DNA of 19,427 nt from the NCBI RefSeq assembly GCF_049969415.1, contig NZ_JBMFOX010000024.1, forward strand, positions 1-19,427, in the 5' to 3' direction. Both the position numbers and the translations under genes were made by a program. Under the pieces are notes generated by a model. That model saw nothing but the letters and a program-made list of their open reading frames with translations, was not told the DNA's origin and ran no database searches. This document shows positions 9,117 to 13,083 of this stretch, one piece after another (the first letter of the stretch is position 1; each line of letters opens with the position of its first letter). The stretch comes from Candidatus Hadarchaeum sp. GTDB lineage: Archaea > Hadarchaeota > Hadarchaeia > Hadarchaeales > Hadarchaeaceae.

Positions 9117-10286
9117 TCACAGCTGCTCCGGCTTCACCGGGCTTATCCTCCTGAGATGTTCCACCACCCGCGGCACCACGCTCAGCGTGTAATCTACCTC
9201 CTCCTCAGTGTTATACCGGCTCAGGGTGAACCTTATCGTGCCGTGAGCAACCGCGGCCTTGACCCCGATCGCCGTGAGGACATGGCTGGGCTGCAGCTTG
9301 GTCGTAGAGCAGGCAGAACCCGTGGCAACCGAGATCCCGTTCAAATCAAGGTGCAGCATCATCGACTCCCCCTCCACCCCCTTAAAGGAACAGCTGACGT
9401 TTGCCGGGCTGCGCTTCTCCCCGCGAGGACCGTTGATCACGGTGTAGGGGATTTCCTCAAGTCCGGAGAGCAGCCTGTCGCGCAACCTCCTCATGTGGGC
9501 GACATCGCGGCCGAAGTTCTCCGCCATCAGCTCGGCGGCCCGGCCAAATCCCACGATGCCCGGCACGTTCTCCGTCCCGGGTTTCAGTTTGAACATGGAG
9601 ATGTAACCATAGGTCACGGGCTCGATCGGCGTCCCCTCGGCGATAAAAAGGGCACCGACCCCCTTCGGGCCGTGGACCTTATGGGCGCTCAGGCTCAGCA
9701 GGTCGACACCCATCTTTTTCACATCAACTCTGACCCTGCCATAGCCCGCCGCCGCGTTGACATGGAAGTACACCTTTTCCCGGCGTCCGCTGAGGATTTC
9801 GCCGATCTCCTCGACAGGTTCAATGGTACCGATCTCATCGTTCACGTTGGCCACGCTCACCAGAATAGTCTCCTCGGTAAGCCGCCTCTCCAATTCGGCG
9901 GTGTCGACGAAGCCCTCCTTATCCACGGGAAGATAATCGACCTTGAAGCCCTCCTTCTCCAGCCTCTCGCAGACCCTCAGAACCGAGGGATTCTCCACCC
10001 TGCTAGTGATGATGTGCCGGCCCCGATGGCGGTTGGCATAGGCAACGCCGCGGATGGCCATGTCGTTGGACTGGGTCGCCCCGGAAGTTAAGACCACCTC
10101 CTCCGGCCTGGCGTTGATGGTCCCCGCAATGATCCGCTGCGATCTCTCCACAGCCTCGGCCGCCTCCAGACCCGGTGTATAGGGAAAAATAGGATGGCCG
10201 AATTTCTCCGTGAAGTAGGGAAGCATGGCCTCCACAACCTCTCTAGCGACCGGTGTAGTCGTGCCGTTGTCCAGATAGACCTTCAC
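9117..10286 (-). CDS. iscS: Cysteine desulfurase IscS/NifS family (group I) with divergent PLP-site residues
   Basis: YLDN.TTTP, TSGAT, SAHKVHGPKG (PLP Lys), GSACS (persulfide Cys) and IRFTLSRYNT. Adjacent to iscU. Confidence 0.88.
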   Translation of the reverse strand: MKVYLDNGTTTPVAREVVEAMLPYFTEKFGHPIFPYTPGLEAAEAVERSQRIIAGTINARPEEVVLTSGATQSNDMAIRGVAYANRHRGRHIITSRVENPSVLRVCERLEKEGFKVDYLPVDKEGFVDTAELERRLTEETILVSVANVNDEIGTIEPVEEIGEILSGRREKVYFHVNAAAGYGRVRVDVKKMGVDLLSLSAHKVHGPKGVGALFIAEGTPIEPVTYGYISMFKLKPGTENVPGIVGFGRAAELMAENFGRDVAHMRRLRDRLLSGLEEIPYTVINGPRGEKRSPANVSCSFKGVEGESMMLHLDLNGISVATGSACSTTKLQPSHVLTAIGVKAAVAHGTIRFTLSRYNTEEEVDYTLSVVPRVVEHLRRISPVKPEQL

Positions 10287-10365
10287 ACGAGCACCAAGGG
10301 ATAATAACGCCTTGATAGCTTATACTTTTTATTCTCACCCGAGCCATTTACTCTAAAGTGGTCTG

Positions 10366-10866
10366 ATGGATGAGTTCACCTTCAGGGCCGCCTACGCGAT
10401 ATTCGGGGCAGTGCTGCTAGCCTTGCTGTTCTTCATCTTCAGCCGCAAGCTGGACCGAAAGCTCTTCGCGGTCCCCGTGGTGGTTGGCTTCCTCTTCTCG
10501 GCAATTACCGCGCAGTTCATCGGCGGCGGCGTGGCCTCGCCTCTGTTCGGTGGCGTCCTGACCGGCTATCTGGTAAAAAACACGACGAAGTGGTCAACCC
10601 TCTTCAGAGCCGGCGCCGCCAACGCCGCCCTGACTCTGGCCGCTCTGTTTCTGCCGGCCCACCTCACCCTCTACCAGACCAGCCTCGCGGACCTGCTGGC
10701 AATGATCTCAACGGCCGGATACACGATAACTGCGGAGCAGTTCCTCTACCTGCTCATCAGCAACTACCTCCTTTATTTCGTAACCATTTTCACCTTCCTC
10801 ACCGGGACAGGCGCCATCCTAGGCAACTACCTGCGCAGAGTGCTGATGCCCAAACAGCACCTTTAG
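10366..10866 (+). CDS. Hypothetical integral membrane protein
   Basis: 166-aa ORF with about five hydrophobic segments, ATG start, divergent from iscS. Confidence 0.7.
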   Translation: MDEFTFRAAYAIFGAVLLALLFFIFSRKLDRKLFAVPVVVGFLFSAITAQFIGGGVASPLFGGVLTGYLVKNTTKWSTLFRAGAANAALTLAALFLPAHLTLYQTSLADLLAMISTAGYTITAEQFLYLLISNYLLYFVTIFTFLTGTGAILGNYLRRVLMPKQHL

Positions 10867-10895
10867 AAGTTCAGAAACGCAAAAACCGCAACCCA

Positions 10896-10902
10896 TTTAT
10901 CT
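10896..10902 (+). promoter_or_regulatory. Putative TATA box of the tRNA gene
   Basis: TTTATCT about 25 nt upstream of G10925, where the structured tRNA leader begins. Confidence 0.5.
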
Positions 10903-10952
10903 CCAAAGGAGCACACGGTTTCACGGTAGCGGGAGAGCTACCCTCCGTAGCG

Positions 10953-10968
10953 AGCCTCGGGCCTACAA
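10953..10968 (+). other. tRNA intron 1, position 4/5 (acceptor stem), 16 nt
   Basis: Strict BHB: outer CC(10945-46)/GG(10970-71), central GUAG(10947-50)/CUAC(10963-66), bulges CG|A and AA|G, inner GCC/GGC. Confidence 0.8.
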
Positions 10969-10996
10969 GGGTAGGGCAGCATGGAGTGCCCGCCGG

Positions 10997-11018
10997 ACGT
11001 GGGAGAACCACGGGCGAA
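10997..11018 (+). other. tRNA intron 2, position 30/31, 22 nt
   Basis: Central CGCC(10991-94)/GGCG(11013-16), bulges GG|A and AA|G, inner CGUGG/CCACG. No outer helix (relaxed BHB). Confidence 0.9.
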
Positions 11019-11025
11019 GCTCATA

Positions 11026-11059
11026 AGGCGTCAAGCCGTGGGTTTGGCGCTCCTGCGAG
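11026..11059 (+). other. tRNA intron 3, canonical position 37/38, 34 nt
   Basis: Central CUCA(11020-23)/UGCG(11054-57) with one U.C mismatch, bulges UA|A and AG|A, and a 10-bp intron hairpin 11028-37/11041-50. Confidence 0.88.
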
Positions 11060-11067
11060 ACCCGGAG

Positions 11068-11096
11068 TCATCCGTGCCAAGACACGGGTGCCGGAA
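11068..11096 (+). other. tRNA intron 4, position 45/46 (variable loop), 29 nt
   Basis: Central CCGG(11062-65)/CCGG(11091-94), bulges AG|U and AA|G, inner 8-bp CAUCCGUG/CACGGGUG. Confidence 0.9.
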
Positions 11097-11110
11097 GTCG
11101 GTGGTTCAAG

Positions 11111-11139
11111 AGAGAACGGCGGTTGCCGGTCTCTGAAGT
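11111..11139 (+). other. tRNA intron 5, position 59/60 (T loop), 29 nt
   Basis: Strict BHB: the T-stem is the outer helix, central UUCA(11105-08)/UGAA(11134-37), bulges AG|A and GU|U, inner GAGA/UCUC. Confidence 0.9.
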
Positions 11140-11345
11140 TCCACCCCCCGCTACCACCTGCTGATCTTCAAACCGCGACCGATTTTAGAAAATGAGGACC
11201 CTAAGCTGTCCAAACGGTGGGTCAAGTTTTATCAGGCTCAATCGGCCGAGGAAAAATTGGCCGGGCGGCATGCATCAATGCTGCATTGAAAAACGAACCA
11301 AAAATCTCTTCTTCTTTGACAACAGACAATTAACGGGATGATGCC

Positions 11346-11930
11346 TTGGTAAGCTTTCTTTTCATTATAGTTTCAACCTTCATCTTCGGCCCCCTTGGCT
11401 CCACGCCCTACTGTTTTTCCCAAGGATTGTCCATCATCGAAACAGCTGTACTCGTGAGCATCGTCCACGCCGCCTTGGTCCCAATCTGGTTTCTCATCTT
11501 AGAGGTCATCCGTTACCGGTTAATTTACGAGAATCGTCTGCTAAGGAGAATCACCAGCGGCGCCTGGGCCAAATCCGGAAGTATCCGGGCCCGCTTGGAG
11601 AGGAACGCCAAGGAGTTTGAACGCCGGGTGGGTCAGAAGGGATTCGGCCTGGGTGTGGTGGTGTTCACCTTCACCTTCGGCGTCTCCTGGGCCGCTCTCG
11701 CCGCCGTGATGCTCAACATCAAGAAAAGCACCATTATCTACTCCATCGCGATCGGTGCGGTGGCCTCAAGCGTCTTCACCGCAGTGGCCTTGGGGACCAT
11801 CGGGACCCTGCTGCCCAGCCCCTGGCTCCTTTATCTCGTGGGCGCGGGTGCCATCCTGGTGATCTTCGGCCACCAAAAATACCGCGAGCGCAGGCTGCTG
11901 CACAGGCTCTACAGGCAGAAAAATCTGTGA
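11346..11930 (+). CDS. Hypothetical integral membrane protein
   Basis: 194-aa ORF with a TTG start (in-frame TAA at 11331), several TM segments and a basic cytoplasmic loop. Confidence 0.7.
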   Translation: MVSFLFIIVSTFIFGPLGSTPYCFSQGLSIIETAVLVSIVHAALVPIWFLILEVIRYRLIYENRLLRRITSGAWAKSGSIRARLERNAKEFERRVGQKGFGLGVVVFTFTFGVSWAALAAVMLNIKKSTIIYSIAIGAVASSVFTAVALGTIGTLLPSPWLLYLVGAGAILVIFGHQKYRERRLLHRLYRQKNL

Positions 11931-11943
11931 GGCAGGCACAGGC

Positions 11944-13083
11944 TCATTTGATAAGCCCGACGCGGTAAAGATACTCGGCCGCCAGCACCGCCCCCTTCGC
12001 CGCGCCCAGCTCGGTGTTATGTGAAAGCACGGTGTACTGAAAGCCCTTCTCAAAGACATTAGGCTCCACGCCACCGATGACCGCGACCATACCTCCCTCA
12101 ACCAAGCAATCGAACCTCGGCTGCGGACGGTCAACTTCCTCGGTGACCACAATGGGCTGCTTCGGCGCGGTCGGCAGCCCCAACCGCTGCGGCTCCCCGC
12201 GGTAACTCCTCCAGGCCTCCTTCAGCTCGTCAACGGTGCATCTGTCCCTGGTCTCGACGAAAACCGACTCCGTGTGCCCATCGAGGACCGGGACGCGGTT
12301 GCACTTGCAGGCTATCTTGAACGAAGCCGGGACAATTTTGCCATCGACAAAATCACCCAACAGTTTCACCGTCTCCTTTCTGACCTTCTCCTCTTCTCCC
12401 TTGATGTAAGGGATGACGTTGCCCTCGAAGGTTCCTGGGACAAAGTCGGGCAACGGCTCGGGCAGGCTGCCTCCCTGGGCGCGGCGCTGGTTCGCCCAGT
12501 TGCTCACCGCCGCATACCCGGCTCCCGAAACCGCCTGCATGGAAGCCATCGTCACCCGCTCCAGACCAAATCCATCGTAAACCGGTTTCAGTGACATGAC
12601 CAAGCCAATGGTCGTGCAGTTGGGCTGCGGGACCACGAATCCCTTCCAGCCCCGCCTCCTTTGTTGAATCTCGATAATTTTAGCGTGGTGTTCGTTGACA
12701 CCCGGTAGGTAGGTGAAGCTGTCCTCAAAATATCGGTAGGCCGAGGCCGTGCTGACCACCGGCTTTTCCCGGGCAATTCTGCCCTCCACTTCAAGTGCCG
12801 TTTCCGACGGCAAAGCGGAGAAGAAGAGATCAACCTCATCGCCGCGGACCTTGTTAACGTCCGCCACCTCCAGATCAAGGATCCTCTTCTTAGGGGCGGC
12901 TTTGACGAACCATCGGGAATCCTCGGTTCCGTATCCCAGCGCATCGGCATAGCTCTTCCCCGCCGACCTCTCGGAAGCGAAGAGGGCTGAAATCTCAAAC
13001 CACGGGTGGTTCTGTAGGTTAACGACGAACTTCTGCCCCACCTCTCCCGTAGCCCCCAAGATGCCCGCACTAATCTTCGTCAC
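11944..13083 (-). CDS. asd: Aspartate-semialdehyde dehydrogenase (archaeal type)
   Basis: GILGATGEVGQ, ASERSAGK, PNCTT (catalytic Cys), MQAVSGAGY, CNRVPVLDGH and SHNTELGAA. Confidence 0.95.
   Translation of the reverse strand: MTKISAGILGATGEVGQKFVVNLQNHPWFEISALFASERSAGKSYADALGYGTEDSRWFVKAAPKKRILDLEVADVNKVRGDEVDLFFSALPSETALEVEGRIAREKPVVSTASAYRYFEDSFTYLPGVNEHHAKIIEIQQRRRGWKGFVVPQPNCTTIGLVMSLKPVYDGFGLERVTMASMQAVSGAGYAAVSNWANQRRAQGGSLPEPLPDFVPGTFEGNVIPYIKGEEEKVRKETVKLLGDFVDGKIVPASFKIACKCNRVPVLDGHTESVFVETRDRCTVDELKEAWRSYRGEPQRLGLPTAPKQPIVVTEEVDRPQPRFDCLVEGGMVAVIGGVEPNVFEKGFQYTVLSHNTELGAAKGAVLAAEYLYRVGLIK

Follow-up and report, generated by a model that had tools for sequence, protein, structure and literature searches.

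No nuclear tRNA gene of Cyanidioschyzon merolae is known to have more than three introns, the number found in tRNA-Ile(UAU), and in archaea up to three introns of the bulge-helix-bulge (BHB) type per tRNA gene were reportedly described by Sugahara et al. in 2007/2008 (Thermofilum pendens, Pyrobaculum). The C. merolae tRNA-Ile(UAU) case is treated in PMC9602550, and passages of a 2014 review describe three-intron tRNA genes as a crenarchaeal case (PMC4090602). For Asgard archaea, a 2026 preprint gives up to five intervening sequences in a single tRNA gene (10.64898/2026.10.13.758758), with no occurrence of Hadarchae- or Hadesarchae- in its main text, and multi-intron genes make up more than half of the tRNA genes in three Asgard genomes (PMC11291895). 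In Hadesarchaea, tRNA gene disruption was noted in a 2018 paper, and passages of an EndA survey (PMC5829648) include YNP_N21, which belongs to the same lineage as the DNA studied here; the section text of the survey gives neither intron numbers per gene nor an initiator tRNA. The present analysis concerns a stretch of 19,427 nt from Candidatus Hadarchaeum sp. (assembly GCF_049969415.1, contig NZ_JBMFOX010000024.1, forward strand), hereafter the window, in which nt 10949-11156 (+) very probably constitute a single functional initiator tRNA-Met (iMet) gene of a Hadarchaeota archaeon, interrupted by five BHB introns that would be spliced by EndA and RtcB.

The locus resembles the multi-intron genes of Thermoproteales in having short BHB introns at non-canonical acceptor, D, anticodon, variable and T sites, in being missed by standard finders, and in its processing, predicted here, through removal by EndA and joining by RtcB. 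It differs from them in lineage (Hadarchaeota, not Thermoproteota), in intron number (five, and six in the related loci L048 and L014, versus three), in the type of enzyme (a single alpha4-like EndA gene versus an (alpha-beta)2 enzyme), and in a first exon of only 4 nt whose BHB borrows leader bases. With the genes of the Asgard preprint it shares a count of up to five intervening sequences, frequent omission by annotators, and an intron load that differs sharply between related families and is not explained by EndA type; in the preprint, most tRNA genes are interrupted. Unlike the Asgard cases, it belongs to another phylum, the extreme case is the initiator tRNA, a relative reaches six introns, and introns 2 to 5 are conserved in sequence across genera. 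The nuclear tRNA genes of C. merolae, according to sections of PMC3728597 and PMC4090602, likewise possess ectopic and multiple BHB-type introns in the D, anticodon and T regions, but they reside in a eukaryotic nucleus and some are permuted, whereas the gene described here is colinear.

The original prediction had taken three introns per tRNA as the maximum, a figure outdated by the five of the Asgard preprint and the six of L014. Searches of full-text literature, from which counts given only in supplements could escape, yielded no four- or five-intron BHB tRNA gene besides the Asgard preprint and no detailed account of tRNA introns in this lineage. Multi-intron tRNA genes spliced by EndA are already known; in intron number this iMet gene stands at the known extreme or close to it, and it comes from a lineage for which tRNA gene disruption had only been noted in passing. 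It belongs to a pattern that runs through its family in Hadarchaeota, and extends extreme tRNA gene fragmentation beyond Thermoproteales and Asgard archaea.

Anatomy of the locus and its spliced product

The iMet locus spans 208 nt, consisting of 130 nt of intron (16+22+34+29+29) and 78 nt of exon (Table 1). ARAGORN identified the 78-mer obtained by in-silico splicing as tRNA-Met(cat) with a regular cloverleaf, and the coordinates and the exon and intron lengths originally predicted for an iMet product after removal of 130 nt were exact. Archaeal initiator tRNAs are marked by a CAU anticodon, A1-U72 as the terminal pair and a run of three G-C pairs at the base of the anticodon stem; the ARAGORN drawing of the spliced 78-mer shows both A1-U72 and the three closing G-C pairs, and CCA is encoded. 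The unspliced locus gave no match with ARAGORN, either in the whole window or in intron mode over nt 10900-11200, and no Rfam match at the gathering threshold or at E ≤10 over nt 10800-11300, in agreement with the expectation that it would be invisible to standard finders.

Table 1. Features of the Hadarchaeum iMet locus, in coordinates of the window. Intron positions 4/5, 30/31, 37/38, 45/46 and 59/60 follow Sprinzl numbering, counted manually.
Feature	Positions	Strand	Length and remarks
TATA-like box TTTATC	10896-10901	+	read from the sequence; putative promoter
Conserved 5' leader	10925-10948	+	distal acceptor copy, its complement, CCGT
Distal copy of acceptor 5' strand, GGTAGCGGG	10925-10933	+	part of leader
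GCTACC	10937-10942	+	complement of distal copy; part of leader
Exon 1	10949-10952	+	4 nt; tRNA positions 1-4
Intron 1	10953-10968	+	16 nt; at 4/5, acceptor stem
Exon 2	10969-10996	+	28 nt; positions 5-30: remaining acceptor 5' strand, D arm, start of anticodon stem
Intron 2	10997-11018	+	22 nt; at 30/31, anticodon stem
Exon 3	11019-11025	+	7 nt; positions 31-37 including anticodon CAT
Intron 3	11026-11059	+	34 nt; at canonical 37/38
Exon 4	11060-11067	+	8 nt; positions 38-45
Intron 4	11068-11096	+	29 nt; at 45/46, variable loop
Exon 5	11097-11110	+	14 nt; positions 46-59
Intron 5	11111-11139	+	29 nt; at 59/60, T loop
Exon 6	11140-11156	+	17 nt; positions 60-76; encoded CCA at 11154-11156

Geometry was assessed with a motif in which the 4 bases upstream of an exon's last two pair with the 4 bases upstream of the intron's last two, leaving a 3-nt bulge on each strand with the cut after the second bulge base, a definition reportedly given by Marck and Grosjean in 2003. 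Intron 1 had the central helix GTAG/CTAC (4/4) with an inner helix of 3 bp and an outer helix of 2 bp; intron 2, CGCC/GGCG (4/4), inner 5 bp and contiguous outer 0 bp; intron 4, CCGG/CCGG (4/4), inner 8 bp and contiguous outer 0 bp; and intron 5, TTCA/TGAA (4/4), inner 4 bp (9 with one mismatch) and the 5-bp T stem as outer helix. For intron 3, the central helix CTCA/TGCG paired at 3 of 4 positions with a U.C mismatch, the inner helix had 2 bp, and the outer helix was the 5-bp anticodon stem that exists once the other introns are removed. The cleavage rule that had been predicted for every junction was therefore observed strictly at introns 1, 2, 4 and 5 and in relaxed form at intron 3. Because the junctions were fixed by the tRNA sequence and not by the motif, comparison with a random control is an independent test, and the geometry of all five junctions stood far above that control. 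When introns with these lengths were placed at random in the window 200,000 times, 4/4 central pairs with an inner helix of ≥3 bp occurred in 0.081%, and ≥3/4 with an inner helix of ≥2 bp in 1.83%. The central helix of intron 1 borrows two leader bases (GT before A1) and so cannot form after removal of the 5' leader.

Other classes of interrupted gene were considered. A split or permuted tRNA gene was ruled out, as the 208-nt locus carries its six exons in order on a single strand, and so were group I and group II introns, which have a ribozyme core of hundreds of nt, since the segments measure 16-34 nt and no Rfam family was matched in the above search at E ≤10. No C/D-box motifs were seen by eye in the conserved 34-nt intron 3.

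A 201-codon open frame (nt 10590-11195, +) spans the entire tRNA locus and could be miscalled as a gene; most likely it is a chance frame in G+C-rich RNA-coding DNA.

Orthologous loci with none to six introns

A DNA search covered 41 genomes of the same order, including that of the window (G000; loci and genomes are numbered with L and G, respectively), and loci of relatives were delimited by intron-tolerant alignment of the spliced product to each locus. The iMet gene was present in 34 of the 41 genomes, at one locus each. Seven of these 34 loci had no intron (one being cut by a contig end), eight had one, three had three, eight had four, seven had five, and one had six. Each of the five introns was precisely missing in some relative, with a continuous tRNA remaining: intron 1 in L006, L012, L013 and L061-L072; intron 2 in L016-L019 and L061-L074; intron 3 in L016-L018, L061, L062 and L066-L072; intron 4 in L010-L013 among others; and intron 5 in L007, L008 and L015 among others. 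Some loci lacked a single one of the five introns, namely that at 45/46 (L010, L011), 59/60 (L007, L008) or 30/31 (L019), while others retained a sole intron, at 4/5 (L016-L018) or 59/60 (L061, L062), and L066-L072 were intron-free. In some genera the first intron was located at 10/11 or at about 14/15 instead of 4/5.

The five-intron layout recurred with 90-94% identity in three other genomes of the window's genus, an observation that bears on whether the locus could be an assembly or binning artefact or a read chimera. A short-contig metagenome assembly as the source leaves some room for such an origin, but forms with 4 to 6 introns also occurred in additional genera and in named records deposited separately, and the 19-kb contig around the locus carries ordinary housekeeping genes, so that an artefact has practically no probability. 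The six-intron form was found in a sister genus (L014:1449-1672, +), with introns at 4/5, in the D loop at about 15/16, and at 30/31, 37/38, 45/46 and 59/60, amounting to about 157 intron nt; its spliced form was a tRNA-Met according to ARAGORN, and the named locus L048 had the same layout. By eye, the D-loop intron of L014 forms a perfect GGGC/GCCC central helix if 27 nt are placed at 15/16.

Within each of two genera, g2 (L007/L062) and g9 (L008/L061), complementary intron sets were observed, one genome having introns at 10/11, 30/31, 37/38 and 45/46 without that at 59/60, and the other having 59/60 only. In addition, L016, from the window's genus, had the 4/5 intron only, together with a T stem resembling those of intron-free alleles of other families. 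These patterns suggest that introns may have been lost in blocks or alleles replaced. The series of orthologues with none to six introns offers clean material for studying gain and loss of BHB introns and the order in which multiple introns are removed.

A pattern scan of one genome per GTDB species, requiring introns at both 30/31 and 37/38, returned 37 stretches, 22 archaeal and 15 bacterial. The archaeal matches comprised 19 in records titled Hadarchaeota, Hadesarchaea, Hadarchaeum or Hadarchaeales, two titled Hodarchaeaceae, which we assume to belong to this lineage, one Micrarchaeota and one uncultured archaeon. The 15 bacterial matches, with spliced-alignment scores of 23-43, were dropped as chance, as was L032, a Hadarchaeota-titled record cut at a contig end (score 19).

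Copy number and processing enzymes

The genome G000 is a metagenome-assembled genome (MAG) of 1.47 Mb (138 contigs) with a rated completeness of 95% and contamination of 2%. The original prediction had called for a check for another intact iMet gene; none was found in two whole-genome searches, blastn-short with the spliced product giving matches beyond 16 nt only on contig C24 and spliced alignment with the iMet gene of G016 peaking only at C24. The other tRNA gene with a CAU anticodon (C6:45731-45840) had G1-C72 and two introns, and is the elongator. The spliced product shared 95% identity with the uninterrupted iMet gene of G016, a genome of the same family, which itself scored 61.8 bits on the Rfam tRNA model. 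An initiator tRNA is essential, and with an apparently single copy, 130 of the 208 bases of this gene must go, by five exact excisions, before any protein starts.

EndA was encoded by one gene (C9:25592-25849), whose product of 179 aa matched PF01974 (115 bits) and PF02778 (77 bits) and aligned almost without gaps to the homotetrameric EndA of M. jannaschii, 1a79 (165 versus 163 residues). Tyr, His and Lys were conserved at what we take to be the catalytic-triad positions, and no L3 insertion was identified in the alignment to the M. jannaschii enzyme; the EndA of G000 is of the alpha4-like type. RtcB (594.6 bits) and archaeal RNase P RNA were also present. Among the 41 genomes of the order, EndA was found in 37, as a single match in 35 of them, in intron-poor and intron-rich genomes alike.

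Constraint on exons and introns

For covariation analysis, every distinct intron sequence was aligned together with flanking exon (10 and 6 nt) and scored against the BHB structure derived from the window. All cells were paired (100%) for intron 2 (13 distinct sequences), with 5 pairs changed on both sides, that is, all 5 inner pairs; the corresponding values were 95.2% and 5 pairs for intron 4 (14 sequences), and 91.0% and 11 pairs for intron 5 (18 sequences). As controls for these three introns, partners slid by 1-3 columns paired in 30-54% of cells, and none of 500 shuffles matched the covariation score. Intron 3 (14 sequences) was weaker: pairing held in 85.9% of cells, and changes on both sides affected 3 pairs. 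Of 88 distinct intron sequences of relatives, 80 had at least 3/4 central pairs with an inner helix of ≥2 bp and 40 had 4/4 with ≥3 bp; the eight failing introns include the rows 'after 58' and 'after 60', which are exon misplacements in the alignment.

Among the four congeners of the same layout, the exons were identical at 74-75 of 75 positions, the introns at 112-128 of 131-134, and the downstream 100 nt at 48-81 of 100. By these figures, constraint is strongest on the exons, with some on the introns. The figures also bear on whether the locus might be a decaying pseudogene with insertions, the working iMet gene lying elsewhere on an unassembled piece. A 95% complete assembly in 138 contigs and the lack of RNA data would be compatible with this, but near-identical exons between divergent flanks, insertions only at BHB-competent junctions, intron helices kept paired via compensatory changes, one locus in each of the 34 genomes, and the failure of both whole-genome searches to find a second copy make a pseudogene very improbable.

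An iMet gene broken by five BHB introns, the core of the original prediction, is thus supported by concordant lines, namely in-silico splicing, motif geometry against the control, empty sites, compensatory changes, and the presence of EndA and RtcB. Several points weigh against it. Under strict 3-nt-bulge geometry, no contiguous outer helix exists for introns 2 and 4, and the U.C mismatch in the central helix of intron 3 recurred in 11 of 14 distinct sequences (the helix being perfect, with TGAG, in L015, L020 and L040). The alpha4-type EndA is the strict type according to passages of PMC4090602 and PMC5829648; fragmentation here occurs also in a lineage with this simple homotetramer-type endonuclease. 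Neither the exact BHB of intron 3 nor the central helix of intron 5 appeared in any minimum free energy (MFE) fold, intermediates included. The relatives are kin, so that the shuffle and pairing counts overstate independence. A second iMet gene is conceivable on a missing piece of a MAG that is 95% complete and 2% contaminated. Finally, a search for sequencing runs over nt 9500-12500 found none, and spliced junctions, circular introns and the transcript start are predictions.

The 5' leader and the first exon

In all nine loci with the 4/5 intron, the 28 nt before A1 contained GGTAGCGGG, then GCTACC and then CCGT, and the blocks GGTAGC, GGG, GCTAC and CCGT were invariant. GGTAGCGGG corresponds to a copy of the acceptor 5' strand plus the GGT that precedes A1 in leaderless relatives, while intron 1 depends on CCGT for its outer helix and for half of its central helix. 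The leader was also found before genes with the 10/11 intron and before L061, which has no first intron; matching leaders were present in L002-L005, L007-L011, L014-L019, L061, L073 and L074, and missing from L006, L012, L013 and L020. The same or a similar TATA-like box (TTTATC or CTTAAAG) was observed at the matching place in relatives. In the window about 32 nt separate the box from the A of the distal copy, a spacing equal to that between box and A1 in leaderless relatives; in addition, L020, which is leaderless, shares homologous upstream DNA with L008 and L061 as far as the distal copy. Because of this spacing and homology, the distal copy looks like the ancestral 5' end, with the present exon 1 in a later duplication. 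The leader may keep the two precursor ends close to each other for as long as the acceptor stem is interrupted, besides supplying part of the first BHB.

The same two observations, spacing and homology, also favour placing exon 1 in the distal copy, with the tRNA 5' end at nt 10928-10931 within GGTAGCGGG and a first intron of 37 nt (nt 10932-10968). The gene and the mature tRNA would be the same, and the transcript would be almost leaderless, as in relatives without the first intron; furthermore, deletion of the 37 nt restores the ancestral 5' end exactly, and GTAG at nt 10926-10929 can pair with CTAC at nt 10963-10966. However, the inner helix would have only 1 bp and no outer helix would form, versus 3 and 2 bp at the proximal site. 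In relatives with the 10/11 intron, the distal copy is unusable as an exon, GTAG being lost and no BHB forming at any shift by eye, and CCGTAGCG before the intron was invariant in 9 of 9 loci with the 4/5 intron. Inspection by eye disclosed no convincing BHB that would make the distal copy an exon or cut the border between leader and A1. A distal first exon is accordingly considered unlikely, and the proximal exon 1 at nt 10949-10952 was retained.

Folding and predicted order of processing

The precursor (nt 10922-11160) had an MFE of -123.3 kcal/mol (z = -5.18), and none of 200 shuffles was as stable. The MFE fold contains a 9-bp helix between the distal copy and the tRNA 3' end, leader CUACCCU pairs with the start of exon 2, and the central helices of introns 1, 2 and 4 form in the full precursor. 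Positions 25-28 take part in the central helix of intron 2 and positions 40-43 in that of intron 4, so both helices occupy bases destined for the D and anticodon stems, and the outer helix of intron 3 needs the 27-31/39-43 stem. Since these motifs share bases, they cannot all coexist, and intron 3, whose outer stem shares bases with the motifs of introns 2 and 4, would be removed after them; intron 1, which relies on two leader bases for its central helix, would have to be excised ahead of RNase P cleavage. An order in which introns 1, 2, 4 and 5 precede intron 3 is a prediction from shared helix bases, not from MFE.

The conserved 3' part of intron 3 was complementary, over 8-9 nt, to the exon-2 bases directly before the central helix of intron 2. 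This complement was found in 12 of 13 distinct variants with intron 2 versus 1 of 5 without it; in 11-56 of 500 trials mononucleotide shuffles gave a complement as long, and the loci are related to one another, so pairing of intron 3 with exon 2 is only a lead.

By the scheme proposed, a TATA-type promoter about 50 nt upstream would drive one precursor of about 235 nt, from which the single alpha4-like EndA would excise the five BHB introns (4/5, 30/31, 37/38, 45/46 and 59/60), introns 1, 2, 4 and 5 leaving first, intron 1 before removal of the leader, and the canonical intron 3 last. RtcB would join the six exons of 4-28 nt, and RNase P would then take off the 5' leader.

A more inclusive reading is offered tentatively, being on balance somewhat doubtful as a whole. 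According to it, the iMet genes of Hadarchaeales would be the most intron-dense tRNA genes yet seen, with five to six BHB introns making up 62-67% of the gene, exons down to 4 nt and one homotetramer-type EndA; splicing would be ordered and cooperative, with the canonical intron last; the 3' end would be clamped by the leader copy, which would also provide a portion of the first BHB; intron 2 would receive its missing outer helix from the 3' part of intron 3; and the patchwork of none to six introns in close relatives, with complementary sets inside a single genus, would reflect fast block-wise loss or allele replacement. If this were true, the iMet gene would be a natural system for how BHB introns come and go.

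Other tRNA genes and genomic context

ARAGORN and Rfam together reported about 45-50 tRNAs in G000, with none for Phe, Tyr, Asn or the initiator. Hidden tRNA genes were probed without reference to the motif, by use of 42 compact tRNAs of G016. That genome (loci L075-L121) had 47 Rfam tRNA hits, 42 of them at ≤92 nt, and is almost intron-free. The probe revealed a tRNA-Phe gene (C3:56388-56558, -) with four BHB introns (central/inner pairs 4/8, 4/6, 4/9 and 3/2), a tRNA-Gln(TTG) gene (C3:45151-45284, +) with three, and a tRNA-Tyr gene (C6:21768-21900, -) with at least two non-canonical introns and the canonical one, all three missed by both ARAGORN and Rfam. Three insertions with unsure boundaries were present at C3:47103-47232. 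The five introns of the iMet gene were the highest count seen in G000. With G000 multi-intron and G016 almost intron-free, one family thus contains sharply different intron loads, with EndA remaining single-copy. In the output of standard finders, such genomes lack initiator, Phe, Gln or Tyr tRNAs, and the missed tRNAs distort completeness estimates and codon-usage inference for MAGs of Hadarchaeota.

Protection from integration as a role for fragmented tRNA genes is an idea reportedly put forward by Randau and Söll in 2008. No integrase was found in the window.

Three minor observations were made beyond the iMet genes of this lineage. In a record titled Candidatus Micrarchaeota archaeon, L033:6192-6348 (-) is an iMet gene into which four A+T-rich segments are inserted, at 30/31, 37/38, about 53/54 and about 58/59. 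These segments show no sequence relationship to the Hadarchaeota introns, and the spliced form of the gene was a tRNA-Met according to ARAGORN. The tRNA-Trp gene of G016 (L120, C2:226095-226282) had a long anticodon-loop intron with the box C/D-like motifs GATGATGA and CTGA, which recalls the guide-RNA intron of euryarchaeal tRNA-Trp. Adjacent uninterrupted tRNA-Ile(GAT)/tRNA-Ala(TGC) pairs, an arrangement typical of bacterial rRNA spacers, were located on very short contigs (C74:2213-2445, C136:224-381, C69:530-602 and C50:1691-1764), and these contigs may be part of the 2% contamination.

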